The position numbers and the translations under genes were made by a program. DNA of 64,000 nt, from the NCBI GenBank assembly GCA_040754455.1, contig JBFMCP010000014.1, positions 1 through 64,000 of the forward strand, read 5' to 3'. Of the stretch, positions 32,575 through 61,416 are shown in pieces. The notes beneath the pieces are model-generated. The model saw only the letters and a list, made by a program, of their open reading frames with translations. It was not told the origin of the DNA and did not search any database. This stretch comes from Nitrospirota bacterium. Lineage in GTDB: Bacteria; Nitrospirota; Thermodesulfovibrionia; Thermodesulfovibrionales; Dissulfurispiraceae. Each line of letters begins with the position of its first letter. The first letter of the stretch is position 1.

Positions 32575-32577
32575 AAG

Positions 32578-37809: not shown

Positions 37810-38688
37810 GTGACAATGTCGAATACAGGAGGCAATACGGGGGTAGTCTCGATACCTACTGCAGGCGAGGCGCCCGTTGTCCGCATCAAACCATCAAGGG
37901 GCTGGGTCGCGCTGCGGCTCGGTGAGCTCTGGGAGTACAGGGAACTGATTTACTTTCTCTCCTGGCGCGAAATAAAGGTCCGCTACAAGCAGACCGTGCT
38001 CGGAGGGGCATGGGCGGTCGTGCAGCCGTTTCTGACGATGGTGGTCTTCAGCGTTGTTTTCGGCAACCTGGTCAAAGTCCCCTCTGACGGCGTCCCCTAT
38101 CCCATTTTCAGCTATGCAGCGCTGGTGCCGTGGACCTTCTTTGCGAGCGGACTAACCCGCGCGTCAAACAGTCTCGTCGGCAACAGCCATCTGATCCGGA
38201 AGGTGTATTTCCCCCGGCTGGCTATTCCCATTTCGGCGGTGCTCTCGGGTGTCGTGGATTTCACGCTGGCCTTTATCATGCTCATCGGCATGATGTTCTA
38301 TTACGGCATGACGCCGACCATCAATATCCTCTGGTTTCCCTTTCTGCTGCTGCTTGCTTTCTCCTCGGCATTGGGCGTTGCGCTCTGGCTCTCTGCGATG
38401 AATGTGCAATTCCGCGATGTGGGATATGCGACGACCTTTCTGGTGCAGCTGTGGTTTTATGCGACTCCCATCGCGTATCCCTCAAGCATGCTCGCAGCGA
38501 AATGGCAGACCCTCTACAGCATCAATCCAATGGTCGGTGTTATCGAAGGGTTCCGCTGGGCGCTGCTCGGAACGCAGGTACCTCTTGGACCGGTGCTCGT
38601 AACCTCTTCATCGGCATCAGTGCTCATATTGGTCACCGGTGTTTATTACTTCCGCCGGTTCGAGAGGACATTTGCTGATGTGGTGTAG
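37810..38688 (+). CDS. Polysaccharide ABC transporter permease (Wzm), copy 1
   Basis: Motifs ELWEYRELIYFL..REIKVRYKQT.LG, KVYFPR, FRDV, YATPIAYP, NPM.GVIEGFR. Confidence 0.92.
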   Translation: MTMSNTGGNTGVVSIPTAGEAPVVRIKPSRGWVALRLGELWEYRELIYFLSWREIKVRYKQTVLGGAWAVVQPFLTMVVFSVVFGNLVKVPSDGVPYPIFSYAALVPWTFFASGLTRASNSLVGNSHLIRKVYFPRLAIPISAVLSGVVDFTLAFIMLIGMMFYYGMTPTINILWFPFLLLLAFSSALGVALWLSAMNVQFRDVGYATTFLVQLWFYATPIAYPSSMLAAKWQTLYSINPMVGVIEGFRWALLGTQVPLGPVLVTSSSASVLILVTGVYYFRRFERTFADVV

Positions 38689-38692
38689 CGTT

Positions 38693-40012
38693 ATGAATAC
38701 AACAGTAATAAGCGTTGAAGGAATCGGCAAGCAGTTCCATATTGGCAAAAAGCAGGAGAGTTACCAGACGCTTTCCGAAACACTTGCTGGCATCTTTGTC
38801 GCACCCCTTCGACGGGCGGGACAGTTGCTGCGGGGCCGGATGAGCGGGGGTGACGGGCTCAATGATACGTTCTGGGCGCTCAGGGACATCACCTTCAATG
38901 TTCAGCGGGGAGAAATCGTCGGCATCATTGGCCGCAACGGTGCAGGCAAGAGCACGCTGCTCAAGATACTTTCACGTATCGTGGAACCAACCGAGGGGTA
39001 TGCCGAGATTCGCGGCAGGGTAGGCTCCCTCCTCGAGGTCGGCACCGGATTCCATCCGCAGCTGACGGGACGGGAGAATATTTTCCTGAACGGGGCGATC
39101 CTGGGCATGCGGCGGTCTGAAATCGAGCGCAAGTTCGATGAGATCGTCGCCTTTGCAGAGGTGGAGAAGTTCATCGACACACCGGTAAAGCACTATTCGA
39201 GCGGCATGTACCTCCGCCTCGCCTTTGCGGTTGCCGCACACCTGGAGCCAGAAATCCTCATTGTCGACGAGGTGCTCGCCGTAGGCGACGAGCGCTTCCA
39301 GAAAAAATGCATCAAGAAGATGCAGGATGTGCGACAGCACGGCCGTACCGTCCTCTTCGTTTCGCATAACATGCGGGCGGTCACCAGCCTCTGCGAGCGG
39401 GTGATCATGCTTGAAGAGGGACGGATCGTTAAGGACGGACTGCCGCACGAGGTCATCGGCGCGTATCTGAATCCAGAAAGCGGGACTCTTGCCGAGCGCG
39501 TCTGGCCTGACCCGAGGAATGCACCGGGAGGGGACATTGCACGCCTGCGCGCGGTACGGGTGAAGAATGAGAGAGGGGAGGTCACTCCGCTCTTCGACAT
39601 ACGCAAGCCGGTTGCCATCGAGATGGAGTATGAAGTGCTTGCGTCGGGCGCTCTTCTGCTGCCCCATTTGAATATCGATAACGAGGAGGGAATAACGGTA
39701 TTTACCACAATAGAAAATGATCCTGACTGGAGAGGCAAGCCCCGTCCTAAAGGAATCTACAGGAGCACTGCCTGGATCCCGGGTAATTTTCTGTCGGAGG
39801 GAAAGCTTTTTGTTGAGGCGTGTGTCCTTACCACCAACCCGCAGACTTCCCAATTCACCGCGCATAATGCGGTTGCATTCCAGGTCGCCGACAGCGGTGG
39901 CGATGATTCGGCCCGCGGCAACTGGATGGGGAGAATGACCGGCGTCGTACGGCCGCTTCTGAAGTGGCAGACCGTCTTCAGCAATAACGGAAGGAAAGCG
40001 GAAGCGCGGTGA
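38693..40012 (+). CDS. Polysaccharide ABC transporter ATP-binding protein (Wzt) with C-terminal carbohydrate-binding-like domain, copy 1
   Basis: Motifs GRNGAGKST, YSSGM, VDEVLAVGD, VSH, then about 170 aa Wzt_C-like extension. Confidence 0.93.
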   Translation: MNTTVISVEGIGKQFHIGKKQESYQTLSETLAGIFVAPLRRAGQLLRGRMSGGDGLNDTFWALRDITFNVQRGEIVGIIGRNGAGKSTLLKILSRIVEPTEGYAEIRGRVGSLLEVGTGFHPQLTGRENIFLNGAILGMRRSEIERKFDEIVAFAEVEKFIDTPVKHYSSGMYLRLAFAVAAHLEPEILIVDEVLAVGDERFQKKCIKKMQDVRQHGRTVLFVSHNMRAVTSLCERVIMLEEGRIVKDGLPHEVIGAYLNPESGTLAERVWPDPRNAPGGDIARLRAVRVKNERGEVTPLFDIRKPVAIEMEYEVLASGALLLPHLNIDNEEGITVFTTIENDPDWRGKPRPKGIYRSTAWIPGNFLSEGKLFVEACVLTTNPQTSQFTAHNAVAFQVADSGGDDSARGNWMGRMTGVVRPLLKWQTVFSNNGRKAEAR

Positions 40013-40025: not shown

Positions 40026-40844
40026 ATGCATACGATAGTAGAGAAATCCGTGATCATCGCCGCACATCCGGATGACGAGGTCCTCTGGTTCAGCTCCATT
40101 GTCGACCGGGTCGACAGGGTTGTGGTGTGTTTTCTGGATTACGAGCCTGAACCTCACTGGGGGCCGGGGAGGCGCCGGAGCCTCCTATCCCATCCGGTGA
40201 GGAACATATCCTCTCTGGGGCTGAAAGAGGCCGGCGTATTTGATACGGCAGATTGGCGGGAGCCGACACTGACCGAGTTCGGCATCGAGATACCGGACAG
40301 GAGCATCTCGAAACGGTACAGCGATAACTATCGCTCCTTGAAACAGCTCCTGAGCGAAAGCGTACGCGCCTGCTGCAATGTGGTTACCCATAATCCATGG
40401 GGAGAGTACGGGCATGAGGAGCATGTCCAGGTCTATCGGGTAGTAAAGGAATTGCAAAGCGAAATGGGGTTCAATCTCTGGTTCTCCAATTACTGCAGCA
40501 ACAGGTCGTTCCGGCTTATGCTCCGGTATGTTTCCGGGTTTGACGCGCCGTATATTACCCTCCGGACGAATAAAGACATTGCGATGCAGGCAAAAGAGCT
40601 TTACAAAGAGAACGGATGCTGGACATGGTTTGATGATTGGGAGTGGTTTAATGAGGAGTCGTTCATGCTGCAGCGGGACCAGGTTGGTGTACTAAGGCCC
40701 CACGGCCGCATCTTCCCGATCAACATGATAAAGTTCAGATATTCGGAAGCGGAGCATCGGAGAGAGCGTCCCGTACTCAGTATCCGCGGCCTGCGCATGC
40801 TGAAAGGAAGGATCAGGAGAAGGATGGCGATGAGGTCAACGTGA
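40026..40844 (+). CDS. PIG-L/LmbE-like metal-dependent deacetylase
   Basis: Motifs AAHPDDEVLW and THNPWGEYGHEEH. Confidence 0.7.
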   Translation: MHTIVEKSVIIAAHPDDEVLWFSSIVDRVDRVVVCFLDYEPEPHWGPGRRRSLLSHPVRNISSLGLKEAGVFDTADWREPTLTEFGIEIPDRSISKRYSDNYRSLKQLLSESVRACCNVVTHNPWGEYGHEEHVQVYRVVKELQSEMGFNLWFSNYCSNRSFRLMLRYVSGFDAPYITLRTNKDIAMQAKELYKENGCWTWFDDWEWFNEESFMLQRDQVGVLRPHGRIFPINMIKFRYSEAEHRRERPVLSIRGLRMLKGRIRRRMAMRST

Positions 40845-42115: not shown

Positions 42116-43043
42116 GCGCATACTGGTGACGGGCGGGGCAGGGTTCCTCGGCTCCCACCTCTGTGAACGACTGCTCAACGAAGGGCACGAGGTGTTGTGC
42201 GTCGACAATTTCTACACCGGCCGGAGATCGAATATTGCGCATCTGATGGGGCATCCCTGTTTCGAAGTGATGCGGCATGACATCTGCTTCCCTCTTTATG
42301 TGGAAGTCGATGAAATCTACAATCTCGCCTGCCCGGCCTCGCCCCTCCATTATCAATTTGACCCTGTGCAGACCACCAAGACATCGGTGCACGGGAGCAT
42401 CAACATGCTCGGACTTGCGAAACGGGTGAAGGCCAAAATACTGCAGGCTTCAACCAGCGAGGTGTACGGTGACCCGAAGATCCATCCCCAGTGCGAGACC
42501 TATTGGGGGAATGTGAACCCCAATGGACTCAGGTCATGCTATGACGAAGGGAAACGGTGTGCTGAAACGCTTTTCTTCGATTACCACCGCCAGCACAAAC
42601 TCACGATAAAGGTGGCACGGATCTTCAACACCTACGGTCCGCGGATGCATCCCCATGACGGACGTGTGGTGAGCAACTTTATCGTACAGGCGCTGCGGGG
42701 AGAGGACATCACCGTGTACGGCGACGGCAGCCAGACACGGAGCTTCTGTTATGTGGATGATCTCGTCGATGGATTAATCAGGCTTATGAACAGTCCCGAC
42801 GATTTCACCGGACCGGTAAACCTCGGCAATCCTTCCGAATTTTCGATCCTCGAACTCGCCGATAAGGTCATAGAGCTTACCGGCTCTTCCTCAAAAATAA
42901 CGTTCAAAGCGCTTCCCCAGGACGACCCTCTGCAGCGCAGGCCCGATATTTCTCTTGCTTCGAGCGTGCTGCAGTGGAAGCCGGTGGTCTCCCTGGAAGA
43001 AGGGCTGAAGAGAACGGTAGAGTATTTCAGAAAAATAACTTGA
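42108..43043 (+). CDS. UDP-glucuronic acid decarboxylase (UDP-xylose synthase)
   Basis: Motifs [54 protein letters not shown]. Confidence 0.93.
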
Positions 43044-43057
43044 AGGAGACAAAGAAC

Positions 43058-45772
43058 GTGAGTAAACGCCGATGCTTCACTTACACGATCGCACTTGCCT
43101 TATTGGGTGCATTTTTTGCAACAGGCTCTGTGCTCTCCCTTGCAAAGGAAGTTGTCGTCGATAACAGCAGTGCCGGGACTTCATCAACCGGGGCATGGCT
43201 GGTGTCGGGAGGGCCTAATCCTTACGGTGCCAATTCGCTCTACGGCAACAACGGGGCGACGTACACGTGGCATGCAGCGCTGCCCGAGAGCGGAACCTAC
43301 GATGTGTATATGTGGTGGACCTATTACAACAACCGTTCCGCGAATGCTCCGGTAACGATCGGCTACAGCGGGGGATCACAGGTAATCCGTGTCAATCAGC
43401 TGATCAACGGAGGGCAATGGAACAAGCTGGGGTCTTTTCGTTTTGACGCGGCAGAAGGCGGCACTATCACTCTTACTGCCGAAGGGGCCGCTCCGACGAC
43501 CTACAGCGCCGATGCGGTGAGGTTTGTGTCCGTGCCTGCTCCAAATGCGGGCGACGCGGTTGTTGATAACGGTGGTGCCGGGACTTCTTCAACCGGGACG
43601 TGGCTGGTATCGGGAGGACTCACCCCTTACGGGACGAATTCTCTGTATGCCAACGGCAGCAGCACGAGCGCCCCCACCTACACATGGAAGGCCGCCCTGC
43701 CACAGTCGGGGACCTATGATGTCTACATGTGGTGGACCTACTACAGCAATCGTTCTGCGAACGCTCCAGTGGATATTATCCACGGCAACGGCAGTACGAG
43801 GGTATGGGTGAACCAGCTTGATCAGACGAAAGCAGGCATGTGGAACAAACTGGGGACCTTTGTGTTCGATGCGACCCTTGGGGGTACGGTCAAACTGACG
43901 GCGAACACTGCGGGCTTTACCTATAGCGCCGATGCAGTGAGGTTCGTCTACGTGGCTACCCCGTCGAACGCGGTACCTGCGGCATCGATCGACTCGATTA
44001 CGCCGAGCCCGGCCGCTGTGGGGCAAACAGTGAACTTTACTGGCCATGGCACGGACGGCGATGGAACCATTACCGGATACAGCTGGCGGTCGAGCATCGA
44101 CGGGCAGCTGAGCACTGCCGCCTCGTTCAGCACGGCACGTCTTTCGGAGGGAAGCCATACGATCTACCTCAAGGTGCAGGATAATGCAGGGGCATGGTCC
44201 CCCGAAACGAGCCGGAGCCTGACTGTCAAGCAGGCGGGCGGGGAGGCGCCGACCTTCGGTTTTGTCGATGATTTCATCAGCAACAGCACCGGCGAATACA
44301 CGGTCGCGGTCACCAAAGCAGAGAGCAGTCAAGCGATCGTGCCGCGAGGAGGGTTCACGTATGAGCTGCCGAACCGGAGAGTGAAGGTTTCGGCTGCTGA
44401 AAATACCAGGGTTCTGTTTTCCCATCCTCTTTCATCACAGGTGAACGGCGTTTTTCTTCTCGATTTCCTTCCGACCTATAAGCACCCTACACCCCTCGTG
44501 CCCGGGGGGAGGCTCCTGATAAGACTCAAACAGGATCAGGACAACTATTATGAGCTCTATAGTTCAAATGGAGCGGGAGCTGGGTACCTGAGGAAGATAG
44601 TAAACGGACAACAGGCAGCGTATACCGCTTTCAGGACGGGATATCTGCTCAATACGAAAATATATACGATAAAGATAACCTACGCCGCCGACACGGCAAA
44701 GGTTGAAGCCTTCGATCAGGTGCTTACCATAAGCGCCGGCGGCGTTATCCTGGTGAACAGTTTCGAGGTGGAAGCAGTACAGCAGGATGCCTATATTGAC
44801 AACATTGTCAGCCCCCATACTGCCGATCCGTATGTTTTCATCACCACCCCCCGGAACTATTATCTGAAGAGGGATGCTCCCCTCGTGGTGAAGGGGCTTT
44901 CAGGAAACGTGCAGGCCGGATGGGGAACCCGGTTTGTCCTCGATAGGGGCACTGCCAGCGAGATTATGCTCACCGATATGACCGCGCCGTATGAGGTCTC
45001 GTTCGGTTCCGTTGCCCCCGGCGAACATACGATGGACGCCTTTGTAGTCGATGCTTCAGGGAATGTCGTGCCGGGTAATTTCACGCACGATTCCCAGTCG
45101 GCCATCGGCATCGGCGAGTACATGGTTGCAATAGGAGACAGCATCACGTATGGAGAAGGCGACGATTATGGCCCTGATAACACTTCTAATGACGAACGCA
45201 ACACCGGCGGCGGATACGAGCCGATATTAAACAATCTGTTCACCGGGTACCGTGGATATCCCCATACCGTGGTGAATGAGGGGGCGAGCGGCACCCGCAC
45301 GGTAAACGGTGCGGTCTCCGTGCCGGGCATCATTGCGCAGCATCCGAATGCTGGTTACTATCTCGTCATGTACGGCACGAACGACTCCAGAGTGAAGACG
45401 CCGAGCGGTCTCGGTCTTCGCCCGGGTGATACCGGCTATTACGGCTCGTACAAAGATTTTATGCAGCGCATTATCACCAGCATTAAAAACGCAGGGAAGA
45501 TACCGGTGCTGGCAAAGATACCCCCTGTGCTGGGCGATACTGCGACGGGCGCCCGTTATCCTGATCTCAACAGTGCGGCACGGAATGTTCTGATCAGGGA
45601 CTATAATAAGGTTATTGATGAGTTGGTGGTCGAGAATAGCCTCCCCCTCCGAGGCCCTGACTTCTATCAGTATTTCTCCGGTCATACGGAAGAATACTTC
45701 GACAACTACCACCCCAACGGTAGAGGCTATCAGTCCATGGCGCACCTCTGGTTCAATGCACTGATCACTTAG
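43058..45772 (+). CDS. Secreted multidomain SGNH/GDSL esterase with two golvesin/CBM-like repeats and a PKD-like domain
   Basis: GTG start after GAAGGAG and a signal peptide. Repeats VVDN...YSADAVRFV. PKD-like TVNFTGHGTD.DG.I..YSW. SGNH blocks GDSIT, GTND, DNYHPN. Confidence 0.8.
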   Translation: MSKRRCFTYTIALALLGAFFATGSVLSLAKEVVVDNSSAGTSSTGAWLVSGGPNPYGANSLYGNNGATYTWHAALPESGTYDVYMWWTYYNNRSANAPVTIGYSGGSQVIRVNQLINGGQWNKLGSFRFDAAEGGTITLTAEGAAPTTYSADAVRFVSVPAPNAGDAVVDNGGAGTSSTGTWLVSGGLTPYGTNSLYANGSSTSAPTYTWKAALPQSGTYDVYMWWTYYSNRSANAPVDIIHGNGSTRVWVNQLDQTKAGMWNKLGTFVFDATLGGTVKLTANTAGFTYSADAVRFVYVATPSNAVPAASIDSITPSPAAVGQTVNFTGHGTDGDGTITGYSWRSSIDGQLSTAASFSTARLSEGSHTIYLKVQDNAGAWSPETSRSLTVKQAGGEAPTFGFVDDFISNSTGEYTVAVTKAESSQAIVPRGGFTYELPNRRVKVSAAENTRVLFSHPLSSQVNGVFLLDFLPTYKHPTPLVPGGRLLIRLKQDQDNYYELYSSNGAGAGYLRKIVNGQQAAYTAFRTGYLLNTKIYTIKITYAADTAKVEAFDQVLTISAGGVILVNSFEVEAVQQDAYIDNIVSPHTADPYVFITTPRNYYLKRDAPLVVKGLSGNVQAGWGTRFVLDRGTASEIMLTDMTAPYEVSFGSVAPGEHTMDAFVVDASGNVVPGNFTHDSQSAIGIGEYMVAIGDSITYGEGDDYGPDNTSNDERNTGGGYEPILNNLFTGYRGYPHTVVNEGASGTRTVNGAVSVPGIIAQHPNAGYYLVMYGTNDSRVKTPSGLGLRPGDTGYYGSYKDFMQRIITSIKNAGKIPVLAKIPPVLGDTATGARYPDLNSAARNVLIRDYNKVIDELVVENSLPLRGPDFYQYFSGHTEEYFDNYHPNGRGYQSMAHLWFNALIT
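43151..43948 (+). repeat. Intragenic tandem domain duplication (about 43151-43528 and 43556-43948)
   Basis: Both copies share AGTSSTG.WLVSGG, ALP.SGTYDVYMWWTYY.NRSANAPV, WNKLG and YSADAVRFV. Confidence 0.85.
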
Positions 45773-45807: not shown

Positions 45808-46548
45808 ATGATACGCACGAAGCTACAATCCCGATGGATACGGTTCTGGATGCGGTACGCGGGACTATCGTTCGGAGGAAGGGTGGCGACCCGGCTCGCT
45901 GCTTGGTGGGCGCCGCCCCACACCGCACGCTACTACCTCGCACGTCTTAATCCGAAGGGGTACATAGACCCGGACGCGATTATCTATCACCGCAATTGTT
46001 CCATGGGAGCGAACGTTTTTATAGCGGATCGTGTGGTGATCAACCAGGGGAAGGGCGAGGGGAGAGTGGAGCTCGGCGACCGCGTTCACCTTCTCCGCGA
46101 TTCGGTGATCGCCACCGGCATGGGAGGAAGCGTAACAATAGGAGCCGACACGTATGTGCAGCCGCGCTGCCAGATTATGGGGTTCAAGGGGCCGATCACG
46201 ATCGGCTGTGGTGTGCAGATTGCGCCGAATTGCGCCTTCTATTCCTACAATCACGGTTTTGCACCGGATGAGCTCATCAGTAAACAGGAGCTGTACACGA
46301 AGGGCGGCATTGTTATCGGTGATGACGCGTGGCTCGGTGTCGGCGTCATTGTGCTGGACGGGGTCCGCATCGGCAATGGAGCGGTCATCGGTGCCGGCTC
46401 CGTCGTGACGCGAGATGTGCCCGATGGGGCCATTGCCTTCGGCGTGCCCGCACGTGTCGTGAAAATGAGAAGTGAGTTGAAATACAGAGAGGAGAGTCGG
46501 AATGATCAAGAGGACACATGTCTGGATCGAAGGACCGGTGCAGCGTGA
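45808..46548 (+). CDS. Hexapeptide-repeat (left-handed beta-helix) acyltransferase
   Basis: Motif IVIGDDAWLGVGVIVLDGVRIGNGAVIGAGSVVTRDVP...GVPARV. Confidence 0.9.
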   Translation: MIRTKLQSRWIRFWMRYAGLSFGGRVATRLAAWWAPPHTARYYLARLNPKGYIDPDAIIYHRNCSMGANVFIADRVVINQGKGEGRVELGDRVHLLRDSVIATGMGGSVTIGADTYVQPRCQIMGFKGPITIGCGVQIAPNCAFYSYNHGFAPDELISKQELYTKGGIVIGDDAWLGVGVIVLDGVRIGNGAVIGAGSVVTRDVPDGAIAFGVPARVVKMRSELKYREESRNDQEDTCLDRRTGAA

Positions 46549-47728
46549 CGATACTGTCACGGTCCCGATGATCGTCGAGGGGCCGGAGCATAATCGCACC
46601 CGGATATGGTATCAGCTGCCCGCCCGCTATGAGCCCGCACTCACGAAGAGCGGCGATCCTTTTGTACTGGCAATGATCTTTACCGTAATGCGCATACCCT
46701 CGGATCTGCATATCCACGGAGAGGTCTCGCCGTCGCTGCTCAGGAACCTTGAGGAGTTCCAGTCTGCATGGAGGTGCTGGAGACCAGAACGATATACTGC
46801 TGTTGAAATCACGGCCGACGTCGAACGGGAGCGGAGCTCGGCAAGCAGTCCGCAAAAGGCCCTCTCGCTCTTTTCAGGAGGCGTCGATTCGTGTTTTACC
46901 GTCTTCAGCCATCGTACACGCCAGGGTAACGGACGGGGTTATGAGCTGCAGGCAGGCCTTATGGTCCACGGCTTCGACATTTTTCTCGACCAAGGTGATG
47001 CCTTTGCACGCGCTGCTGCACGGGCCAAAAAGATGCTGGACAGCCTCGACGTCGACTTCATTCCGATGGTCACCAATATACGGGATTTGAATGAGCCCTG
47101 GTGGGACTTCCACGGAGCCGCTCCCGCGTCCTGCCTGATGCTGCTCCAGGAGGGCTTTTCGGGCGGCATTATCCCCAGCACCGAACCGTACAACGGGCTG
47201 GTATTGCCGTGGGGATCGAACCCGGTCACCGACTGGATGATGTCGAACGATTCTTTCCAGATTATCCATCACGGAGCATCGCTGACAAGAACCGAGAAGG
47301 TACGGGAGATTGCACAGTGGCCTGAAGCGAAGCAGTATCTGCGCGTCTGCATGATCGGCAAGAAGGACGAGGTAGACCGGAACTGCGGCGTCTGCCAGAA
47401 ATGCGTCAGAACGATATTGAATTTCAGGGTGGTCGGAGCAGGGCTGCCCGGATGCTTTGAGAAGGATGCGACGGATGAGCAGATTGCACGCTTGAGAGTA
47501 ATGGATCCGCTGCAGCTGGCGGAACTGCAGCGCATACTCACGTTTGCGAAATCCGCTTCAGTTTCCGCCCCGTGGGTGGATGCGCTGGAAGTATGCATAC
47601 TGCAGAGCCGTCTCCGTATCGCATCGAAACGGTCGATCAAGCAGCTCCGGAAAATGCTGACCCATGCCGGGGCATTTATAAAATATGCGAGCGGCAGGTA
47701 TAAAGCCACGCAGGCAGCTGCTTATTGA
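46502..47728 (+). CDS. Hypothetical PP-loop (adenine nucleotide alpha-hydrolase-like) protein with QueC-like Cys cluster
   Basis: Motifs LFSGGVDS, TRTEKV, LRVC...NCGVCQKCVRT. Confidence 0.65.
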   Translation: MIKRTHVWIEGPVQRDDTVTVPMIVEGPEHNRTRIWYQLPARYEPALTKSGDPFVLAMIFTVMRIPSDLHIHGEVSPSLLRNLEEFQSAWRCWRPERYTAVEITADVERERSSASSPQKALSLFSGGVDSCFTVFSHRTRQGNGRGYELQAGLMVHGFDIFLDQGDAFARAAARAKKMLDSLDVDFIPMVTNIRDLNEPWWDFHGAAPASCLMLLQEGFSGGIIPSTEPYNGLVLPWGSNPVTDWMMSNDSFQIIHHGASLTRTEKVREIAQWPEAKQYLRVCMIGKKDEVDRNCGVCQKCVRTILNFRVVGAGLPGCFEKDATDEQIARLRVMDPLQLAELQRILTFAKSASVSAPWVDALEVCILQSRLRIASKRSIKQLRKMLTHAGAFIKYASGRYKATQAAAY

Positions 47729-47807
47729 AGAGCAAAATGAGAAAACAGGAATCCTTAATTTTTATTTTTGCTTTTTTATCTTTGCATTTACAGAAGGGTA
47801 CTCGATT

Positions 47808-49076
47808 ATGGAACAGATAACCTTAGACTGTCTTCGTCCGCAGCTGGTATGCCAGATCATGGATGAGGAGTTCGGCGCGCTGGGATACCTGGTCATTGAC
47901 CGGACCGTAGGGGCCAATCCCTGCGGCGGCGGCATCCGGTTTGCACCGGGATTGACCGTCGAGGAGATTGCCCAATTGGCCCGGGTCATGACGCTGAAGT
48001 TCAGCTTCCTCAACTTTCCACACGGAGGCGCCAAGGCAGGCATTACTGTCCCCGCCCCTCTCTTTGCACAGCACAGGGAGCGGGTCATGGCCGCCTTCGG
48101 GAAGAGCATGGGGATACTCCTCAAAAGGAATGTCTACTTTACGGGAGAAGACATGGGGACGACCATCGATGATATCAACATCATCCAGCAGGTCCTCGGC
48201 AATCCTCCGTATCTCTCGAGCAGCGACAGCATCGCGTATACGGCACTGACGGTCTTCGAAGTCATCAGGCAGAGTGTCTTCCACCGTGGCCTGAAATTCT
48301 CCTCGTTGACCGCCGCCATTGAGGGGTTCGGCAAAGTAGGGAGCGAGCTGGCGGTGCTCCTCGCCAACGAGGGGGTATCAATCCGAGCTGTTTCGACCGC
48401 CGCAGGGGCACTGTACCGCTCTTCGGGGCTTGATGTCGGCGCAATGGTATCGCTCAGGCAGACCTATGGCGACAGTTTTGTTCAGCATATGAAAGGCGCC
48501 GACCTGATCGATCACGCCGATGTGCTGACGCAGGATGTCGATCTCCTCATTCCCTGTGCACGGACATGGTCTATACACATCGGGAATGCGGCACGGATGA
48601 AGGCATCCCTCATTGTCCCTGCCGCCAATGCGCCGGTTACCCCGGGGGCAGAACAGGTGCTGGCACGGAAGGGAGTTCTTTATGTGCCCGATTTTGTCGC
48701 GAATTGCGGCGCAGTCCTCAGTTCGAGAATGTCGGCCCTCGGTTTCAGCGGTGCCGTTATACGGCATACGATCCAGGAGGTGTTTGCCGGCAAGGTGGCA
48801 CGTCTGCTCGAAGTCGCCGGCCACAAAGGGATCAGCCCTCTCCAGTTCGCCAGGGCGATTGCCTGGCGCAATTTTCACAAAATGAACGAAAAGGCGGCCC
48901 CCTCTCTGCCGGGGAACACTGACAGGGGATGCCCTTCGGGGAAAATACGGGAGGCCTTGAGCGCGATGAAGAAGAAGGCCCGTCTGCTTGCCAGGACCGA
49001 AGATGATCAGCAGGCTGCATTCTCGCGGTTTGCACAGCGCCTCGTCGGTGCAATAACCGTCTACCCGTCGGAGTAG
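47808..49076 (+). CDS. Glu/Leu/Phe/Val dehydrogenase family protein (divergent)
   Basis: Motifs GGGIRF, LARVMTLKF, GGAKAGI, GEDMGT, EGFGKVG, DLLIPCA, PAANAPVT, VPDFVANCG. Confidence 0.85.
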   Translation: MEQITLDCLRPQLVCQIMDEEFGALGYLVIDRTVGANPCGGGIRFAPGLTVEEIAQLARVMTLKFSFLNFPHGGAKAGITVPAPLFAQHRERVMAAFGKSMGILLKRNVYFTGEDMGTTIDDINIIQQVLGNPPYLSSSDSIAYTALTVFEVIRQSVFHRGLKFSSLTAAIEGFGKVGSELAVLLANEGVSIRAVSTAAGALYRSSGLDVGAMVSLRQTYGDSFVQHMKGADLIDHADVLTQDVDLLIPCARTWSIHIGNAARMKASLIVPAANAPVTPGAEQVLARKGVLYVPDFVANCGAVLSSRMSALGFSGAVIRHTIQEVFAGKVARLLEVAGHKGISPLQFARAIAWRNFHKMNEKAAPSLPGNTDRGCPSGKIREALSAMKKKARLLARTEDDQQAAFSRFAQRLVGAITVYPSE

Positions 49077-49081
49077 GGATC

Positions 49082-50944
49082 ATGCCGGGTATTTCTGTCA
49101 TCTATGATCCCTCGGGGGAAGGAGCCGGGCACGAATCACTGATGGTACGCATGTGCGCTCTTCTCCAGCGTTCGGGCAGGGAGGGTCCTGTCGAGTGCTA
49201 CAGCGGTCCGGGATTCAGCATCGGCCGGTGCCGGCCTGCACTCATCAACCGTTCGCCGCAGCCGTCCTGGAATGAAAAAAAGACGATCTGCGCCTTTTTC
49301 CATGGTGAACTCCTCGACGGTCACCGCCACAGGAGCATGCTGGAGCGCAGGGGACATCATCTTTCGGATGCCGATCATGCAGCGCTGGTGGTCCATCTTT
49401 ATGAAGAAGCTGGTGAGGATTTTATTCACGGACTGAACGGCAGGTTTTCCCTTGTCCTCTGGGATAGTCTCCGCGAGAGGCTTATTATCGCCAACGACCG
49501 CTACGGTCTGCATCCATTGTATACGGCATCCCACAATGGGATCTATCGTTGGGCTTCGTCAACAAAGGCGATTCTGGCCGATGAGCAATTCCCCCGGAAG
49601 GTCAATCTGGCGGCCCTGGCTGATTTCCTCTGCCTTAATGTTCCACAGTCGGACGATACCCTTTTTTACGGCATTCACGAGGTACCGCCGGCGAGCATCA
49701 TCAGCTGTGAGCAGGGGACGGTGAGCTGCCGGCAGTACTGGGACATGAAGTTCCAGGAGGAGGAGACCCGCATCCCTGCAGAGGAGTACCTGCACGAGCT
49801 GATTGCCCTGTGTAGGCGATCGGCGGAACGGAGACAATCTGGTCAGGGGAGATTCGGCTTTCTTTTGAGCGGAGGAATGGATTCACGCCTGATCCTGAGC
49901 GTACTCAACCGGGAGGCGGTGAAGACCTTTACCTTCGGCACCCCCCTCTCAGCCGATGTCCGTTATGCCCGTAAGGTGGCGCGGGTGGCACGCGTGCCCC
50001 ATAGGGCGCTCGAGATTAAGCCGGATTACCTTAAAACCTTCGCCCTGACCGGCATTGAGCGCACTGAGGACCTCATCAACTGCAATCAATTCCACGGCAT
50101 CAGTGTCTATGATGAGATCGCACTTCACGTGGATACCCTTGCGACCGGATCGGTGGGCGAGGACATATTCGGTCATTTCAATAAAGATCCGGAAAGCGCC
50201 TTCTGGGGGAGAGGGTTTACCGTCGATCGATACTATGATATGAAGTGCATCACGACCGACGAAGAGTTGGGCCAGCTGCTCGCTCCTCCCTATTCCAAAG
50301 TATTACAGCAGGTTGCTAGAGCACGATTTCATAAGGACTTCGGAAAGTACCAGTCGGCGCACGTCACGCATCGGGTGGATTACTGGGGCATGCGGCAGCA
50401 GCAGCGCCGTGTGTTCACACGACTCTCATCTCTTTTCCCTGATAACCTTGTCTATTGCCCCTTCTTTTTCGATAATGATCTGATCGATTTTGTGCAGAAG
50501 ATCCCCCCCTCGCTGCGGTGGGGTGAGCGCTCACTCTACCGGCGTATGCTTACCCGTACGGCGCCCGACCTTGCTGCACTGCCGGCGACGACTACCAACG
50601 GCCTGCCGCTGACGGCGACGCACCGGCAGATGAGCCGACATGAGAAAATGATGCACTTGCGGCGCGGGATCGCTCATATGACCAGAGGGCTGCTCCCCTG
50701 CGCCTATCAAAGTTTTTATGTGGATTACGATGCATGGCTGCGAAAGGACCTGAGGGAATGGGCAGAGACCGTGGTGTTTGATCCCTTGACCATGAGCAGA
50801 GGATACTGGAACCCGGCAGCAGTACGAAAGCTTTGGGACGATCACCAGCGGGGGTATGGCCCCCTGCGCCTCATGGCAGCGAAGCTGACGTCGATCGTCA
50901 GCTTTGAGCTCTGGTGCAGGCTCTACCTTGACGGACGGAGTTAA
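49082..50944 (+). CDS. Asparagine synthetase B-like amidoligase lacking the N-terminal catalytic Cys
   Basis: Starts MPGIS. Motifs FFHGEL, LNGRFS, NDRYGLHPLY, LLSGGMDSR, CPFFFDNDL, FELWCR. Confidence 0.85.
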   Translation: MPGISVIYDPSGEGAGHESLMVRMCALLQRSGREGPVECYSGPGFSIGRCRPALINRSPQPSWNEKKTICAFFHGELLDGHRHRSMLERRGHHLSDADHAALVVHLYEEAGEDFIHGLNGRFSLVLWDSLRERLIIANDRYGLHPLYTASHNGIYRWASSTKAILADEQFPRKVNLAALADFLCLNVPQSDDTLFYGIHEVPPASIISCEQGTVSCRQYWDMKFQEEETRIPAEEYLHELIALCRRSAERRQSGQGRFGFLLSGGMDSRLILSVLNREAVKTFTFGTPLSADVRYARKVARVARVPHRALEIKPDYLKTFALTGIERTEDLINCNQFHGISVYDEIALHVDTLATGSVGEDIFGHFNKDPESAFWGRGFTVDRYYDMKCITTDEELGQLLAPPYSKVLQQVARARFHKDFGKYQSAHVTHRVDYWGMRQQQRRVFTRLSSLFPDNLVYCPFFFDNDLIDFVQKIPPSLRWGERSLYRRMLTRTAPDLAALPATTTNGLPLTATHRQMSRHEKMMHLRRGIAHMTRGLLPCAYQSFYVDYDAWLRKDLREWAETVVFDPLTMSRGYWNPAAVRKLWDDHQRGYGPLRLMAAKLTSIVSFELWCRLYLDGRS

Positions 50945-50948
50945 GAGA

Positions 50949-51941
50949 ATGGGACGAGATAACGTGAATGTCATATCCGGTGAGCCGCTGGTCAGTGTGA
51001 TTACTCCCGTGCATAACGGAGAAAAGCACCTGGAGGAATGCATCGAGAGTGTGCTGCGCCAGACCTACGATCGCTGGGAATACATCCTCGTCAACAACTG
51101 CAGCACGGATCGCACCCCCGAGATCATCCGCCGCTATGCACGGCAGGAGCCGAGGATACGGGTAGTGAATACCCCCTGTCTGCTGGAGATCATGAAGAAC
51201 TGGAACCATGCGCTGCGCCAGATCTCGCCCGAAAGCGCCTACGTGAAGGTCGTACATGCTGATGACTGGCTCTTTCCCGAGTGCCTTTCAAAAATGGTTG
51301 CCGTTGCCGAGGCACACCCGTCGGTCGGCATCGTGGGGTCGTATCGGATTGATGACACCAAGGTGAACTGCGATGGGTTGCCCTATCCGAGCACGGTGGT
51401 TCCGGGCCGGGAGGTCTGCCGTGATACACTCCGTGAGAAGCTCTACGTTTTCGGTTCTCCGACCACCCTCCTGATACGGTCCGCTATCGTCAGACGATGC
51501 GACACCTTTTACAACGAGAGCAATTTTCATGCTGATACTGAAATATGCTTCGATATACTCAGGGAGCATGACTTCGGCTACGTGCATCAGGTGCTTTCCT
51601 ATACCCGCAGGGACAAGGAGGCAATGACCTCTTTCGCGCGGCGGCATAACACCTTCCTGCCCAGCAGCCTCTATCTCCTGAAAAAGTACGGGGCTGTCTA
51701 CCTCTCTCCTGAGGAGTACCGGATTCGTCTGAACGCCAAGGTGAATGCATACTACCGCTTTCTCGCGAAAGGCATTTTGGAGCGGAGGGACCGCCAGTTC
51801 TGGAATTACCATAAAAAGGCGCTGGCGATGATGGGATACCGGCTGAATTCCTACAGAATGGCACGGGGCATGATCCTCGAGCTTATGCATGCAGCACAGA
51901 ATCCGGTGATGGCGCTCTCGAGACTGATGAAAAGGGCATAA
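50949..51941 (+). CDS. Glycosyltransferase family 2
   Basis: Motifs PLVSVITPVHNG, VNNCSTDRT, HADDWL. Confidence 0.9.
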   Translation: MGRDNVNVISGEPLVSVITPVHNGEKHLEECIESVLRQTYDRWEYILVNNCSTDRTPEIIRRYARQEPRIRVVNTPCLLEIMKNWNHALRQISPESAYVKVVHADDWLFPECLSKMVAVAEAHPSVGIVGSYRIDDTKVNCDGLPYPSTVVPGREVCRDTLREKLYVFGSPTTLLIRSAIVRRCDTFYNESNFHADTEICFDILREHDFGYVHQVLSYTRRDKEAMTSFARRHNTFLPSSLYLLKKYGAVYLSPEEYRIRLNAKVNAYYRFLAKGILERRDRQFWNYHKKALAMMGYRLNSYRMARGMILELMHAAQNPVMALSRLMKRA

Positions 51942-54392: not shown

Positions 54393-55238
54393 ATGGTCAA
54401 CGCATTGACGATTGACGTCGAAGATTACTTTCATGTCACGGCCTTTGAACAGTACGTCAAGCCGGAGGAATGGGAGTGTTATCCGTCCAGGGTGGTCGAC
54501 AATACCCTGAGAGTCCTCGACATTCTCGACGAGACCTCGAAGAAAGCGACCTTTTTTGTCCTCGGCTGGGTGGCTGAACGGAACCCCTCGCTGGTGAGGA
54601 CGATTCAGGAGCGTGGACATGACATCGCCAGCCACGGGTATGCCCATGAGCTGGTGTACCGCATCGGTCCCGTGCGATTCAGAGATGATATAAGGAGAGC
54701 GAAACGGCTGATCGAAGATGTTACCGGGAAAGAGGTCACCGGATACCGGGCGCCGAGCTATTCGATCACGAAAAAATCGCTCTGGGCGTATGACATCCTT
54801 CTCGAAGAGGGCTTTTCGTATGATTCGAGCGTCTTCCCGATCCTGCACGATATCTACGGAATCCCAGATGCGCAGCGTTTCCCCTATGACGTGAAGAGGC
54901 CGTCGGGAACGCTGAAGGAGTTCCCCCTTTCGACCATACAGCTTCGCCTTTCAGGGCTCGAATACCGCGTCCCTATCGCAGGAGGAGGATATCTCCGGCT
55001 CTTTCCGACGGGACTGATAAAGAGAGCGATACAGCATATCAACCATACTGAACAGCAGCCGGCAGTGCTCTATTTCCACCCCTGGGAGATCGATCCGAAG
55101 CAGCCGCGCATAGCGGCCTCGTTCAAGTCCCGGTTCCGCCATTACCTGAACCTCGACAAGACCGCCGATAAGGTGCGCTGCCTGCTGCGGCAATTCGATT
55201 TCGGCCCGATGAAGGATATCCTCTATGCGCAACGATGA
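54393..55238 (+). CDS. XrtA-system polysaccharide deacetylase (DUF3473 type)
   Basis: Motifs NALTIDVEDYFH, ATFFVLGWVAE, IASHGYAH, GYRAPSYS, GGGYLRL, YFHPWEIDP.QPR. Confidence 0.92.
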   Translation: MVNALTIDVEDYFHVTAFEQYVKPEEWECYPSRVVDNTLRVLDILDETSKKATFFVLGWVAERNPSLVRTIQERGHDIASHGYAHELVYRIGPVRFRDDIRRAKRLIEDVTGKEVTGYRAPSYSITKKSLWAYDILLEEGFSYDSSVFPILHDIYGIPDAQRFPYDVKRPSGTLKEFPLSTIQLRLSGLEYRVPIAGGGYLRLFPTGLIKRAIQHINHTEQQPAVLYFHPWEIDPKQPRIAASFKSRFRHYLNLDKTADKVRCLLRQFDFGPMKDILYAQR

Positions 55239-56607
55239 GAGGAACAGGGGGGACTTCTACGCAAGAATAGCACGGCGTATTGTCGCGCCGCTTTGGGCAT
55301 TCAAAGAGCGAAGCCCCTATTTGAAGCACCTTGCCTACCTGAAGACATCGCCGTATCGTCCGATCGGGGAAGTGCGCGCCGACCAGTGGCGGCGTCTGAA
55401 GGACCTCCTCGGGCATGCCTACCGGAATACGGCATACTATGCGGCAGCATTCAGGGCCGGCGGCATTGTACCCGACGACATAGCCTCATGGGAGGACTTC
55501 ACCCGTTTGCCGCTCCTTACCAAAGAAGATATACGGGCGCATAAGGACGATATGGTGGCACGGAACATGCCCCGGGAACGACTCATGCCGAAGAAGACGT
55601 CGGGGTCAACCGGCGTCTCTCTTGAGTTCTATGTGGATGAGGAGAGCCTCCAATGGAAGCGGGCCTGCGCCCTACGCCACGACATGTGGACAGGATGGAA
55701 GCTCGGAGAGCGGGTAGGGGCGCTCTGGGGCAATCCGGAGTACAGAAAAAACTGGCGCGGGCATGTCAGAAATGCCCTGCTCGAACGGGCTATCTATCTC
55801 GACACCCTGAAAATGGATGAGCAGGAGATGCTCGCATTCTATTATCGTATAAAGCGGAAAAAACCGACGCTCCTCTTCGGGCATGCCCACTCGCTCTTTC
55901 TTTTCGCCCGGTTTCTTGATCGACGGGGCCTCGCCGATATCAGGCCCATGGGAATCATCAGCAGCGCCATGGTGTTGCACGATTTCGAACGTCGTGAAAT
56001 CGAGAAGGTCTTCGACTGCAGTGTCACCAACCGGTACGGCTGCGAGGAGGTGAGCCTCATCGCCTGTGAATGCAGCGAGCATAAGGGATTCCATATCAAT
56101 ATGGATACGCTCGTGGTCGAATTCATCCGGGAGGGCAGGCCGGTGCAGGCGGGAGAGCCCGGCGCCGTTGTGGTGACCGATCTTACCAACAGGGGCATGC
56201 CGTTCATCCGCTACAAGGTCGGCGACGCGGGAGTCCCTTCGGACCGTGCCTGCAGGTGCGGCTGCACCTATCCGCTCATCGAGTCGCTCGAGGGAAGGAG
56301 TGCCGACTATGTGGTGACCCCCGAGGGGAAATACATTTCTGGCATATCGCTGACCGAGAACTTCGCCATGCTCCTCGGGGGGATAAAGCAGCTGCAGATC
56401 GTTCAGGAGCATCTCGACTATCTCATCTTCAGGATCGTGAAGGGAGAGTCTTTTACGAGCAGTCTGCTCAAAGACTTGGACAGGCTTGTCGTGCAGAGGT
56501 TCGGCAAAGGGATCAGGTATTCGGTGCAGTTCGTGGATTCCATACAGCAGGAACGGTCGGGGAAATACCGCTTCTGCATCTCGAATATCAAGAATCCCTT
56601 TACATAG
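55225..56607 (+). CDS. Phenylacetate-CoA ligase-like (PaaK/CapK) adenylate-forming enzyme
   Basis: Motifs LPLLTKEDI, TSGSTG, NRYGCEEV, TDLTNRGMPFIRYKVGD, EGRSAD, SGKYR. Confidence 0.85.
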   Translation: MRNDERNRGDFYARIARRIVAPLWAFKERSPYLKHLAYLKTSPYRPIGEVRADQWRRLKDLLGHAYRNTAYYAAAFRAGGIVPDDIASWEDFTRLPLLTKEDIRAHKDDMVARNMPRERLMPKKTSGSTGVSLEFYVDEESLQWKRACALRHDMWTGWKLGERVGALWGNPEYRKNWRGHVRNALLERAIYLDTLKMDEQEMLAFYYRIKRKKPTLLFGHAHSLFLFARFLDRRGLADIRPMGIISSAMVLHDFERREIEKVFDCSVTNRYGCEEVSLIACECSEHKGFHINMDTLVVEFIREGRPVQAGEPGAVVVTDLTNRGMPFIRYKVGDAGVPSDRACRCGCTYPLIESLEGRSADYVVTPEGKYISGISLTENFAMLLGGIKQLQIVQEHLDYLIFRIVKGESFTSSLLKDLDRLVVQRFGKGIRYSVQFVDSIQQERSGKYRFCISNIKNPFT

Positions 56608-60274: not shown

Positions 60275-61411
60275 ATGATCAAAATCGCCTTTGTCATCGA
60301 TACGATCGCATCGCCGACGGCAGGAACGGAGCAACAACTCCTGCTGTTGCTCAAACATCTCGACCGTGCTCTCTACGCGCCCTGGCTCTGCGTGCTCTAC
60401 CCCTCGGATTGGCTGGACAGGGAGTTCGACCTCTGCCCGCTCCATGTGGCAGACATACGGTCGTTCAAGAGTCCCCGCGCCTATCGCCGCCTCTGGGAGC
60501 TTTCGCGTTTTTTCAGAGATATGGGAATTGACATCGTGCAGACGTATTTCAGGGATTCGCACATCGCCGGTATCCTTGCGGCAAAGCTTGCGGGCATAAA
60601 GACGGTTATCGCGTCGAGAAGAAATCAGGGGTACTGGTATACGCCAAGAGAGCTTCTCCTGCAGAAACTGCTCAACCGGTGGGTTACGCTCTCCATTGCA
60701 AACTCACGGAGTACAAAAGAGTGGATGGTGGACGTCGAAGGGGTTGCTGCGGAGCGCATTGCGGTCATCCACAACGGTGTCAGCCTTGAACGTTTCAGCG
60801 CGAGCAGGGAGGTGAGGACGCGCTACCGTTCTCTGTTGGGGATCCCGGAGGGAGCGCCCTGCATCGGCATGGTGGCGAACCTCAGGAGCGTGAAGGGAGT
60901 AGATGTTTTTATAAAGGCTGCCCCCCTCATAAAAGAGAACGTACCGGAGGCACAGTTTCTGATTGCCGGTGAGGGGGCGGAGAGAGGCCGCCTCGAACAG
61001 CTCGCTGCAGCGCTGCGCCTCGACGGATCGCTCCGGTTCCTCGGTAGGAGAACCGATATCCCGCACCTCATGAGCGCCTTTGACATCGGCGTGCTCTCGT
61101 CCACTTCGGAGAGTCTCTCGAACTCCCTCATCGAATATATGGCCGCGGGGCTCCCGGTCGTCACCACTGAGGTCGGCGGGAGCCGCGAGGCGGTCGAAGA
61201 CGGTGTGACCGGCTTTATCGTGCCGGTCGGTGATTACCAGGCCCTTGCCGGAGCTGTTTTGAGGATCCTGAGAGATGGGGGACTGGCGGCTGCGATGGGA
61301 GCAGAAGGGAAACAGCGTGCTGAACGTCTCTTTTCCCTGCACCGGTTTATTGAGGCGTCGGAGCGTTGCTATCGACAGCACGCTCCTCTTCAAACAGGCG
61401 AGAGATTATAG
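60275..61411 (+). CDS. Glycosyltransferase family 4
   Basis: Start MIKIAFVID. Motifs AGTEQQ, IHNGV, KGVDVF, SESLSNSLIEYMAAGLPVV. Confidence 0.9.
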   Translation: MIKIAFVIDTIASPTAGTEQQLLLLLKHLDRALYAPWLCVLYPSDWLDREFDLCPLHVADIRSFKSPRAYRRLWELSRFFRDMGIDIVQTYFRDSHIAGILAAKLAGIKTVIASRRNQGYWYTPRELLLQKLLNRWVTLSIANSRSTKEWMVDVEGVAAERIAVIHNGVSLERFSASREVRTRYRSLLGIPEGAPCIGMVANLRSVKGVDVFIKAAPLIKENVPEAQFLIAGEGAERGRLEQLAAALRLDGSLRFLGRRTDIPHLMSAFDIGVLSSTSESLSNSLIEYMAAGLPVVTTEVGGSREAVEDGVTGFIVPVGDYQALAGAVLRILRDGGLAAAMGAEGKQRAERLFSLHRFIEASERCYRQHAPLQTGERL

Positions 61412-61416
61412 ACTCC

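Follow-up and report, generated by a model that had tools for sequence, protein, structure and literature searches.

Why should a gene for an amino-acid dehydrogenase lie among the genes for a bacterial polysaccharide? This question is raised by a 64-kb stretch of DNA from a Nitrospirota bacterium (referred to here as the window), in which three consecutive genes, all on the + strand and spanning positions 46502–50944, form a candidate module within an exopolysaccharide (EPS) locus. They encode a PP-loop ATPase, a dehydrogenase of the ELFV family and a protein resembling asparagine synthetase B (AsnB) from which the N-terminal cysteine of glutaminase domains is absent. A reading made from the sequence alone (the sequence-only reading) had described the three genes and had proposed that an amidoligase unable to use glutamine is fed by the dehydrogenase. 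It is apparent from the analyses presented below that the AsnB-like protein belongs to a large family, spread over many phyla, without the glutaminase machinery. Tentatively, and with somewhat less than even confidence, it is proposed that this protein is a ligase-type enzyme acting on an EPS sugar to give an amide, and that its amine partner, most likely an amino acid, is supplied by the dehydrogenase.

The AsnB-like protein and its family

The AsnB-like protein begins with MPGIS and contains the ATP-binding loop LLSGGMDS, as had been noted previously. A hidden upstream start encoding Met-Cys, which would have restored the nucleophile, was ruled out: a stop codon is situated in frame 25 codons upstream of position 49082, and no ATG, GTG or TTG lies between the two. 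In Pfam searches the protein matched GATase_7 (residues 54–166, 78.5 bits) and Asn_synthase (residues 243–496, 75.0 bits), both above the cut-off. The best NCBIfam match was TIGR03108, at 164.4 bits against a cut-off of 816.9 and covering only positions 1–326 of the 628 in the profile; TIGR01536, the model for glutamine-hydrolysing asparagine synthase, scored 153.2 bits against a cut-off of 267.1. These scores and the missing cysteine rule out membership of either family.

In an alignment to Escherichia coli AsnB (1ct9), the Asn of the NGE motif and the Asp of the SDCE motif are each replaced by His, and the Arg of HERL is kept. The first of these, Asn74 in the numbering of E. coli AsnB, is the oxyanion residue, and the HERL Arg of AsnB binds the α-carboxylate of glutamine. 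The AlphaFold model of the protein was of high confidence (predicted local distance difference test, pLDDT, 92.1; predicted template-modelling score, pTM, 0.91). When it was compared with known structures using Foldseek, the best match was TsnB9 (7ylz; TM 0.74–0.81 over the full length), and TM values ranged from 0.56 to 0.81 over TsnB9 and AsnB. The next matches were E. coli AsnB, β-lactam synthetase, human ASNS and carbapenam synthetase, as well as CarA, with E values of 1e-19 to 1e-15 for 1mc1, 1jgt and 1q15. The model has the two-domain architecture of the AsnB superfamily, an N-terminal nucleophile (Ntn)-like domain joined to a PP-loop synthetase domain with SGGxDS, and is consistent with a complete AsnB-fold enzyme whose glutaminase chemistry would be gone and whose adenylating site would be kept.

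A homologue search returned a sharply bounded subfamily at 49–64% identity, below which identities fell to 32% and 25%. The subfamily alignment comprised 33 sequences, 31 of them with an N-terminus; residue 2 in those 31 was Ser (19), Ala (5), Pro (5) or Thr (2) and never Cys, and SGGxDS was invariant. A profile search over 1.84 billion representatives recovered the subfamily as one cluster (1004 bits), followed by many full-length matches at 300–590 bits, and the starts of the best 150 clusters (at 50% identity) were compared. A recognisable start was present in 121 of these, in which residue 2 was Pro (78), Ser (28), Ala (7), Thr (2), Val (2), Gly (2) or Cys (2); the remaining 29 were truncated or had odd starts. 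In a 115-sequence alignment of the wider family, the position of Asn74 was occupied chiefly by Asp (38), Glu (23), Ala (14), Tyr (11), Thr (7) and His (6). The Arg of the α-carboxylate site was kept in 88 of the 115, which is compatible with an N-terminal domain that binds an amino acid; the equivalent of Asp98 was Asp in 71, and SGGxDSR was essentially invariant.

Because Cys1 is absent from all 31 subfamily members, and the position of Asn74 is never a conserved Asn, the AsnB-like protein is predicted not to be a glutamine amidotransferase, although its adenylating site is kept. The earlier proposal that the amidoligase cannot use glutamine and needs another amine is thereby upheld, and it extends to the family as a whole.

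Genome contigs were also scanned, yielding 78 related loci, of which four are close (L001–L004) and 74 more distant. In 46 of them the encoded protein matches from residue 1, 24 being without Cys and 22 starting with MCGI. The Cys-less starts are mostly MPG(I/L) and come from archaea, Chloroflexota, Planctomycetota, Zixibacteria and others. Nine of the MCGI proteins scored 627–1089 bits with TIGR03108, as against 145–249 bits for nine Cys-less proteins that matched the model; three further Cys-less proteins that were scanned fell below the listing threshold. In a quick IQ-TREE analysis (50 rows, midpoint-rooted), a branch with 100% support sets the Cys-bearing, TIGR03108-like proteins apart. 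The window subfamily forms a 13-row clade (100%), in which the window protein groups with those of L002 and L004 (98%). The topology and the variety at residue 2 would fit a single loss of the cysteine followed by relaxation at that position.

Proteins of the MPG(I/L) type are encoded in L005–L038 and L042 (e.g. L008:10001–11896, L012:10001–11884, L017:7253–9097 and L026:5613–7487), in bacteria and archaea, including methanogens (L005 and L026). They are found mostly in glycan loci, and no curated NCBIfam model captures them. Neighbouring genes were examined in 12 of the wider Cys-less loci, three per side (69 proteins). Ten of the 12 have glycosyltransferase, flippase, Ugd or epimerase genes as neighbours (L010 and L022 do not), and in four a Wzx-like flippase gene (Polysacc_synt_3) is situated directly upstream of the AsnB-like gene. 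An Asp/Glu/hydantoin racemase gene (L023:11870–12664; PF01177, 1e-23) begins 7 nt after the Cys-less AsnB-like gene of its locus, with GT2 (family-2 glycosyltransferase) and epimerase genes nearby; it provides a second case in which a member of this ligase family adjoins a gene for an amino-acid enzyme. A PGA_cap gene (CapA-like, poly-γ-glutamate capsule; L009:8829–9971) lies directly upstream of the Cys-less gene in a Scalindua metagenome-assembled genome.

Three groups of characterized enzymes invite comparison. WbpS, WbqG and PGN_1234 belong to TIGR03108 and are described as converting uronic acids to uronamides; genes of this type adjoin VimA-like and deacetylase genes in PEP-CTERM loci (PMC7468200). 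With these proteins (eps_aminotran_1 in the naming of the model) the window protein shares its two-domain AsnB architecture, its setting in a glycan/PEP-CTERM locus and an N-terminal half that aligns. Unlike them, with their MCGI start, it has neither Cys1 nor Asn74, and its C-terminal half does not match.

The second group consists of AsnB homologues from polyketide pathways. Among these, the Cys-bearing FdmV transfers ammonia, and PdmN, whose N-terminal residue is Ser, joins a carboxylate to d-Ala or d-Ser; an N-terminal Ser or Ala is taken there as the mark of a ligase, and amino-acid-tailoring enzymes encoded in the same cluster supply the partner (bioRxiv 10.1101/2025.10.30.685158). The window protein resembles PdmN, as described there, in that the N-terminal Cys is replaced and the PP-loop synthetase domain is intact; the PdmN-type enzymes make an amide from an adenylated carboxylate and the amine of a substrate, not from ammonia released from glutamine. 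PdmN-type enzymes and the β-lactam and carbapenam synthetases differ in acting on polyketides or β-lactam precursors rather than in polysaccharide loci, and sequence likeness to 1jgt is low (33 bits).

The third comparison is with TsnB9, a hydroxyamidotransferase that serves trichostatin biosynthesis. It is the best match of the window protein in sequence (118.9 bits, by profile) as well as in structure, at an identity of 14–15%, but it starts with MCG.

The dehydrogenase and the PP-loop protein

The dehydrogenase matched ELFV_dehydrog (PF00208, 120.1 bits) and ELFV_dehydrog_N (PF02812, 54.1 bits) above the gathering cut-offs. Since its homologues begin with MExI, the most likely start is ATG 47808 and not 47685, and an AT-rich spacer of 79 nt therefore follows the PP-loop gene. 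The motifs CGGGIRF, HGGAKAG and EGFGKVG were confirmed from the open reading frame (ORF), as was the 5-nt gap to the AsnB-like gene reported by the sequence-only reading. Searches of the PDB gave Thermotoga maritima glutamate dehydrogenase (GDH; 2tmg, 3.7e-39), phenylalanine dehydrogenase (PheDH, 8.5e-27), tryptophan dehydrogenase (TrpDH, 1.1e-20) and leucine dehydrogenase (LeuDH, 5.5e-16).

The Lys of the KGG(I/L)R motif in GDH binds the side-chain carboxylate of glutamate. In the alignment to 2tmg Gly stands in its place; three other residues, the Lys of MTWK, that of GGGK and the Asp, are retained. Scores with all NCBIfam equivalogs for GDH and ScyB were far below the cut-offs (for GDH, 136 and 132 bits against 620 and 750). 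Among the 120 relatives listed, at 32–96% identity, none has Lys at the KGGIR position; the residues found were Ser (33), Gly (19), Ile (15), Cys (15), Tyr (9), His (8), Ala (7), Leu (4), Val (2), Thr (2), Arg (2) and Phe (1), and three relatives are without the motif. The catalytic motif GG[AG]K[AGC]G was retained in 115 of the same 120. In an alignment of 28 members K64, K76 (GGxK) and D115 are conserved, K76 being invariant, and a C-terminal extension of some 60 aa, present in all 28, sets the family apart from known ELFV dehydrogenases. In other respects the protein resembles these enzymes (2tmg, PheDH 1c1d and 1bxg, ScyB 5b37, LeuDH 1leh and 6acf), having both Pfam domains and the motifs GGAK, MTLK, GEDMGT and GFGKVG. 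It differs from them in its Gly at the site of the glutamate-specific Lys, and an intermediate position is indicated by scores of 138 bits for GDH and 97 bits for PheDH. The protein atlas contained only generic ELFV clusters for it.

A typical or an inactive GDH is ruled out by the missing Lys, the scores below cut-off and the retained catalytic residues. The dehydrogenase appears to be active, as judged from its catalytic Lys, α-carboxylate Lys, Asp and GxGxxG motif, and belongs to a large subfamily of non-glutamate ELFV enzymes; in this respect too the earlier description holds.

The PP-loop protein consists of an N-terminal, β-rich domain of about 110 aa, an SGGVDS loop and a cysteine cluster, C283-x11-C295-x2-C298-x2-C301. 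Searched alone, it gave no sequence match in Pfam, NCBIfam or the PDB (nothing better than E 0.12 in the last), and PF06508 (QueC) did not match it at E 0.1. It belongs nonetheless to a family of more than 1083 relatives at approximately 50% identity, found in many phyla and without a Pfam domain; the protein atlas contained only unnamed clusters. FSGGxD and the four cysteines (C283, C295, C298 and C301) are invariant across 34 sequences of the family. When these were searched one by one, weak matches were obtained to QueC (TIGR00364; 15 of 34, best E 0.012), LarE (10 of 34, 0.0016) and GMP synthase (5 of 34). The AlphaFold2 model (pLDDT 91.9) was closest among PDB folds to QatC (9y01_B; E 1.3e-6, TM 0.42), followed by TilS, MnmA, LarE, QueC (3bl5, TMt 0.60) and the nitrile synthetase ArtA.

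An identity as an N-acetyl-sugar amidotransferase of the WbuX/PseA type was rejected, no such model being among the 17 NCBIfam families matched (E up to 1) by the 34 members. QueC is defined by SGGxDS and a zinc-binding C(x)8CxxCxxC motif, and uses ammonia in two ATP-dependent steps (PMC13329287). The window protein resembles QueC and QatC in its SGGxDS loop, its Cys-x(n)-CxxCxxC cluster and its fold. It differs in having a cysteine spacer of 11 rather than 8 residues, an extra N-terminal domain, identities of only 11–16%, and a setting in a glycan locus instead of a 7-deazaguanine or defence context. Its modelled structure suggests a QueC/QatC-like adenylating enzyme with an additional N-terminal domain.

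Gene order, recurrence and the surrounding locus

Recurrence of the gene set was assessed by tblastn with the window proteins and by profile hidden Markov models (HMMs) over 5409 stop-to-stop ORFs from the 78 loci; the two approaches agreed. Three loci alone carried the dehydrogenase family: L002 (Thermodesulfovibrionales), L003 (Nitrospirales) and L004 (Nitrospira sp.). In each of them, as in the window, its gene is followed immediately, on the same strand, by the AsnB-like gene. The PP-loop family was found only in L002 and L003, and the profile HMMs detected no distant homologues of either family in the 78 loci beyond L002–L004. In L004 the order is acyltransferase gene, a 380-nt gap, dehydrogenase gene and AsnB-like gene, with no PP-loop gene. 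In L001 (Chloroflexota, 59% identity), a GT2 gene, the AsnB-like gene and an acyltransferase gene lie in a Wzm/Wzt locus. Homologues of the acyltransferase adjoin the AsnB-like gene in all four close loci (42–74% identity), and those of the GT2 do so in L001, L002 and L004 (56–66%).

It is apparent that the constant core is formed by the acyltransferase, AsnB-like and GT2 genes. The dehydrogenase gene is an accessory, present in three of the four close loci, and the PP-loop gene is present in two. The predicted pairing of dehydrogenase and ligase thus recurs, but within Nitrospirota, and the inclusion of the PP-loop protein in the module holds for L002 and L003 and fails for L001 and L004.

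Further co-occurrence in metagenomes is hinted at by database matches whose longest contigs are of identical size. For dehydrogenase and AsnB-like matches these sizes are 197676, 100555, 5915 and 14538, and for dehydrogenase and PP-loop matches they are 31019, 27074, 100555 and 14538. In addition, a distant AsnB-like match (P0165, 25% identity) and a PP-loop family member (P0265, 52%) share a longest-contig size of 15433; this coincidence may reflect a PP-loop family that accompanies AsnB-like genes outside Nitrospirota. A literature search on this pairing found no paper that brought together Val dehydrogenase, asparagine synthetase, glycosyltransferase and polysaccharide.

The features of the window are listed in Table 1. 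The locus is a canonical XrtA/PEP-CTERM EPS locus, the products of eight of its genes exceeding their NCBIfam cut-offs, and the three genes of the candidate module are real and form part of an operon within it. The dehydrogenase stop codon (49074–49076) lies 5 nt before the AsnB-like ATG (49082), which has a GGAG sequence 8–11 nt upstream. The GT2 ORF opens at TTG 50904; were translation to begin at the internal ATG 50949, the gap after the AsnB-like stop codon would be 4 nt. Scans of the module region for promoters and terminators gave no excess over shuffled controls (six regional promoter sites, as against 3.3 in shuffles, sd 1.6); a single weak + strand site was located at 47657–47684.

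Table 1. Positions in the window of the candidate module, its neighbours and the genes of the EPS locus
Feature	Position	Strand	Basis or remark
PrsT	21264–24050		Above NCBIfam cut-off
Priming transferase TIGR03013 (EpsB_2)	24047–25414		Above NCBIfam cut-off
Export protein	25426–26235		Above NCBIfam cut-off
Chain-length determinant	26250–27869		Above NCBIfam cut-off
Tyrosine autokinase	27885–28730		Above NCBIfam cut-off
ATPase	28736–29932		Above NCBIfam cut-off
PIG-L deacetylase	40026–40844		Pfam/NCBIfam
Hexapeptide-repeat acyltransferase	45808–46548	+	Pfam Hexapep, 61.5 bits
QueC-like PP-loop ATPase, 408 aa	46502–47728	+	Motif SLFSGGVDSCF
AT-rich spacer, 79 nt, from PP-loop gene to likely dehydrogenase start	47729–47807		Sequence inspection
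ELFV-family amino-acid dehydrogenase, 422 aa	47808–49076	+	ORF opens at 47685 (463 aa); Pfam ELFV_dehydrog and ELFV_dehydrog_N
Cys-less AsnB-like protein, 620 aa	49082–50944	+	Starts MPGIS; Pfam GATase_7 and Asn_synthase
Family-2 glycosyltransferase (GT2)	50904–51941	+	Pfam Glycos_transf_2, 109.7 bits
Outer-membrane protein TIGR03016	52003–53376		Above NCBIfam cut-off
XrtA polysaccharide deacetylase (TIGR03006)	54393–55238		Above NCBIfam cut-off

The locus also contains glycosyltransferase genes, genes for sugar epimerases and dehydratases, a CDP-sugar/C-methyltransferase sub-cluster and two genes for Wzt-type ABC ATPases. The sub-cluster (30672–37045) encodes a glucose-1-phosphate cytidylyltransferase, a DAO-type FAD oxidoreductase, an epimerase/dehydratase, a sugar C-methyltransferase (Methyltransf_13/14) and an aminopeptidase-like protein with DUF4910, DUF2172 and HTH_47. 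The two Wzt-type ATPases (38639–40012 and 61275–63470, one with Wzt_C) are encoded beside the Wzx/Wzy-independent XrtA export genes, which points to two glycans, or two routes of export, being specified side by side. The gene just upstream of the module (42974–45772), which is kept in the Nitrospira locus (L004:4–3363), encodes a large protein in which Golvesin_C repeats and PKD domains are combined with a GDSL lipase/acylhydrolase domain at the C terminus. An adenylate-forming enzyme (55225–56607) had no Pfam match; in NCBIfam it resembles DVU_1553-family, PaaK and F390-synthetase ligases (148.6 bits, below cut-off), and it is kept in L002 and L004 at 71–74% identity.

Possible routes to an amide on an EPS sugar

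In the reading that is tentatively preferred here, the N-terminal domain of the AsnB-like protein would have lost its glutaminase nucleophile and oxyanion residue, and the PP-loop synthetase domain would adenylate a carboxylate. The acyl-adenylate would then be attacked by an amine of non-glutamine origin, so that an EPS sugar, or its precursor, would become decorated with an amide. The dehydrogenase would make a particular amino acid by reductive amination of a 2-oxo acid, and that amino acid would become amide-linked. The QueC-like ATPase would be an optional second ATP-dependent enzyme of the same pathway, activating a carboxylate or carbonyl. We infer the substrate, the direction in which the dehydrogenase works and any coupling between the proteins; a uronic acid as the substrate is suggested by analogy, through the distant similarity to WbpS and TIGR03108.

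An amino-acid ligase is ranked first because of the precedent of the PdmN-type enzymes and the racemase gene of L023, because L001 and the 74 distant relatives lack an adjacent ammonia source, and because the residue of the N-terminal domain that binds an α-carboxylate is partly retained. Glycans provide chemical precedents for the product. In Methanococcus maripaludis, aglXYZ account for an acetamidino group and aglU for the attachment of threonine. The N-glycan sugar of that organism, ManNAc3NAmA6Thr, is a uronic acid bearing an amide-linked amino acid and an ammonia-derived group (PMC11407970). Amide-linked amino acids are common on surface glycans more generally, including the N-acetyl-aminoacyl groups on O-antigen amino sugars (PMC7685785; PMC11407970).

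Several observations weigh against the proposal. Ordinary amino acids need no special supply. Neither a dehydrogenase nor a PP-loop gene is present on the 15-kb contig of L001, and the dehydrogenase is absent, by profile HMM, from all 74 of the more distant loci; because these loci go without it, the ligase needs no dedicated dehydrogenase, and the claim that the dehydrogenase feeds the ligase gained no support from them. The three loci that carry the dehydrogenase are all from Nitrospirota and are syntenic, and hence are not independent events. No homologue of UDP-glucose dehydrogenase, and so no uronic-acid-forming gene of this kind, was detected in the window by tblastn (E 1e-3), and the uronic-acid substrate suggested by the sequence-only reading is likewise left without support. 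The C-terminal half of the AsnB-like protein does not align to AsnB by profile and is too divergent for substrate residues to be read from it. By analogy, the nearest glycan-acting relatives, which make plain uronamides, and QueC, which uses free ammonia, would favour an ammonia-based alternative (PMC7468200; PMC13329287).

In that alternative the dehydrogenase would deaminate an amino acid and hand ammonia to the AsnB-like enzyme, and perhaps to the QueC-like enzyme, in place of the lost glutaminase, the product being a plain uronamide or other amide. This is considered unlikely, although several observations are consistent with it. The closest glycan-acting relatives (WbpS, WbqG and PGN_1234) are described as forming uronamides (PMC7468200), TIGR03108 is the best NCBIfam match, and QueC-type enzymes use free ammonia (PMC13329287). 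Both of the flanking ATP-dependent enzymes are without a glutaminase partner, and the gap between dehydrogenase and ligase genes is 5 nt. By tblastn, no Cys-bearing TIGR03108 gene and indeed no second AsnB-like gene was detected in the window (E 1e-3), the sole other match being the Ntn domain of GlmS. On the other hand, all 74 distant loci and L001 are without an adjacent ammonia source, and the loss of the glutamate-specific Lys speaks against glutamate, the abundant donor. Furthermore, we know of no precedent for a dehydrogenase acting as the ammonia-donor subunit of an amidotransferase. A more elaborate form of this alternative, in which the dehydrogenase serves as a built-in nitrogen donor instead of a glutaminase, a ‘dehydrogenase-coupled amidotransferase’ formed with the AsnB-like and QueC-like enzymes decorates the PEP-CTERM EPS independently of the glutamine pool, and the amide or amine handle so built could also accept exosortase-mediated protein attachment, is regarded as quite improbable.

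The dehydrogenase gene, the PP-loop gene or both might instead be passengers, metabolic or otherwise unrelated genes acquired by the operon in a single Nitrospirota lineage and functionally independent of the AsnB-like enzyme. The distribution is in keeping with this: the genes are present in three and two of the 78 loci, respectively, the carrier loci belong to one phylum and are syntenic, both families are large and mostly found elsewhere, and the PP-loop gene, unlike that of the dehydrogenase, is missing from L004, either through loss or because it was never there. Yet order, strand and tight spacing have been kept at 57–64% protein identity across Nitrospira, Nitrospirales and Thermodesulfovibrionales, and one of the coincidences of longest-contig size (14538; P0152, P0009 and P0246) involves another branch of the subfamily tree. 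The passenger explanation is considered unlikely.

A reversal of polarity, the AsnB-like enzyme adenylating the carboxyl of an amino acid (aspartate is adenylated in this way by AsnB) and joining it to the amine of a de-N-acetylated or amino sugar to give an N-aminoacyl sugar, has only a slight chance of being correct. In such a scheme the neighbouring acyltransferase may N-acetylate the N-aminoacyl sugar, and the dehydrogenase may make or interconvert the amino or oxo acid. The locus does encode two deacetylases, PIG-L and the XrtA deacetylase, and a hexapeptide acyltransferase gene is adjacent in five of five loci; N-acetyl-aminoacyl groups are borne by O-antigen amino sugars (PMC7685785), and in the Wbp/Vim pathway, whose genes co-occur with PEP-CTERM loci, deacetylation precedes the formation of N-seryl and N-glycyl linking sugars (PMC7468200). 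However, aminoacyl transfer in that pathway is assigned to VimA and not to an AsnB-like enzyme (PMC7468200), and the acyltransferase is most like O-acetyltransferases, its top NCBIfam matches being of the LacA/WbbJ type and every one below cut-off.

AsnB-like amidotransferases that make uronamides are already known from O-antigen and PEP-CTERM EPS loci. The present analysis shows a large sister family, spread over many phyla and encoded mostly in glycan loci, that has lost the glutaminase machinery; at least 148 of the best 150 clusters (50% identity) are without the cysteine. Two large unannotated families are flagged as well, namely the ELFV dehydrogenases that lack the Lys and carry a C-terminal extension, and the QueC/QatC-like PP-loop ATPases, for which Pfam has no model. 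For most known glycan structures, the step that links an amino acid by an amide has no assigned gene. If the members of the AsnB-like family are amino-acid ligases, this would explain how amide-linked amino acids are attached to the surface sugars of bacteria and archaea, and the Nitrospirota branch, with its dedicated non-glutamate ELFV dehydrogenase, adds an experimentally tractable pair. Taken together, the set of genes points to a route for amide decoration of the bacterial sugar coat.

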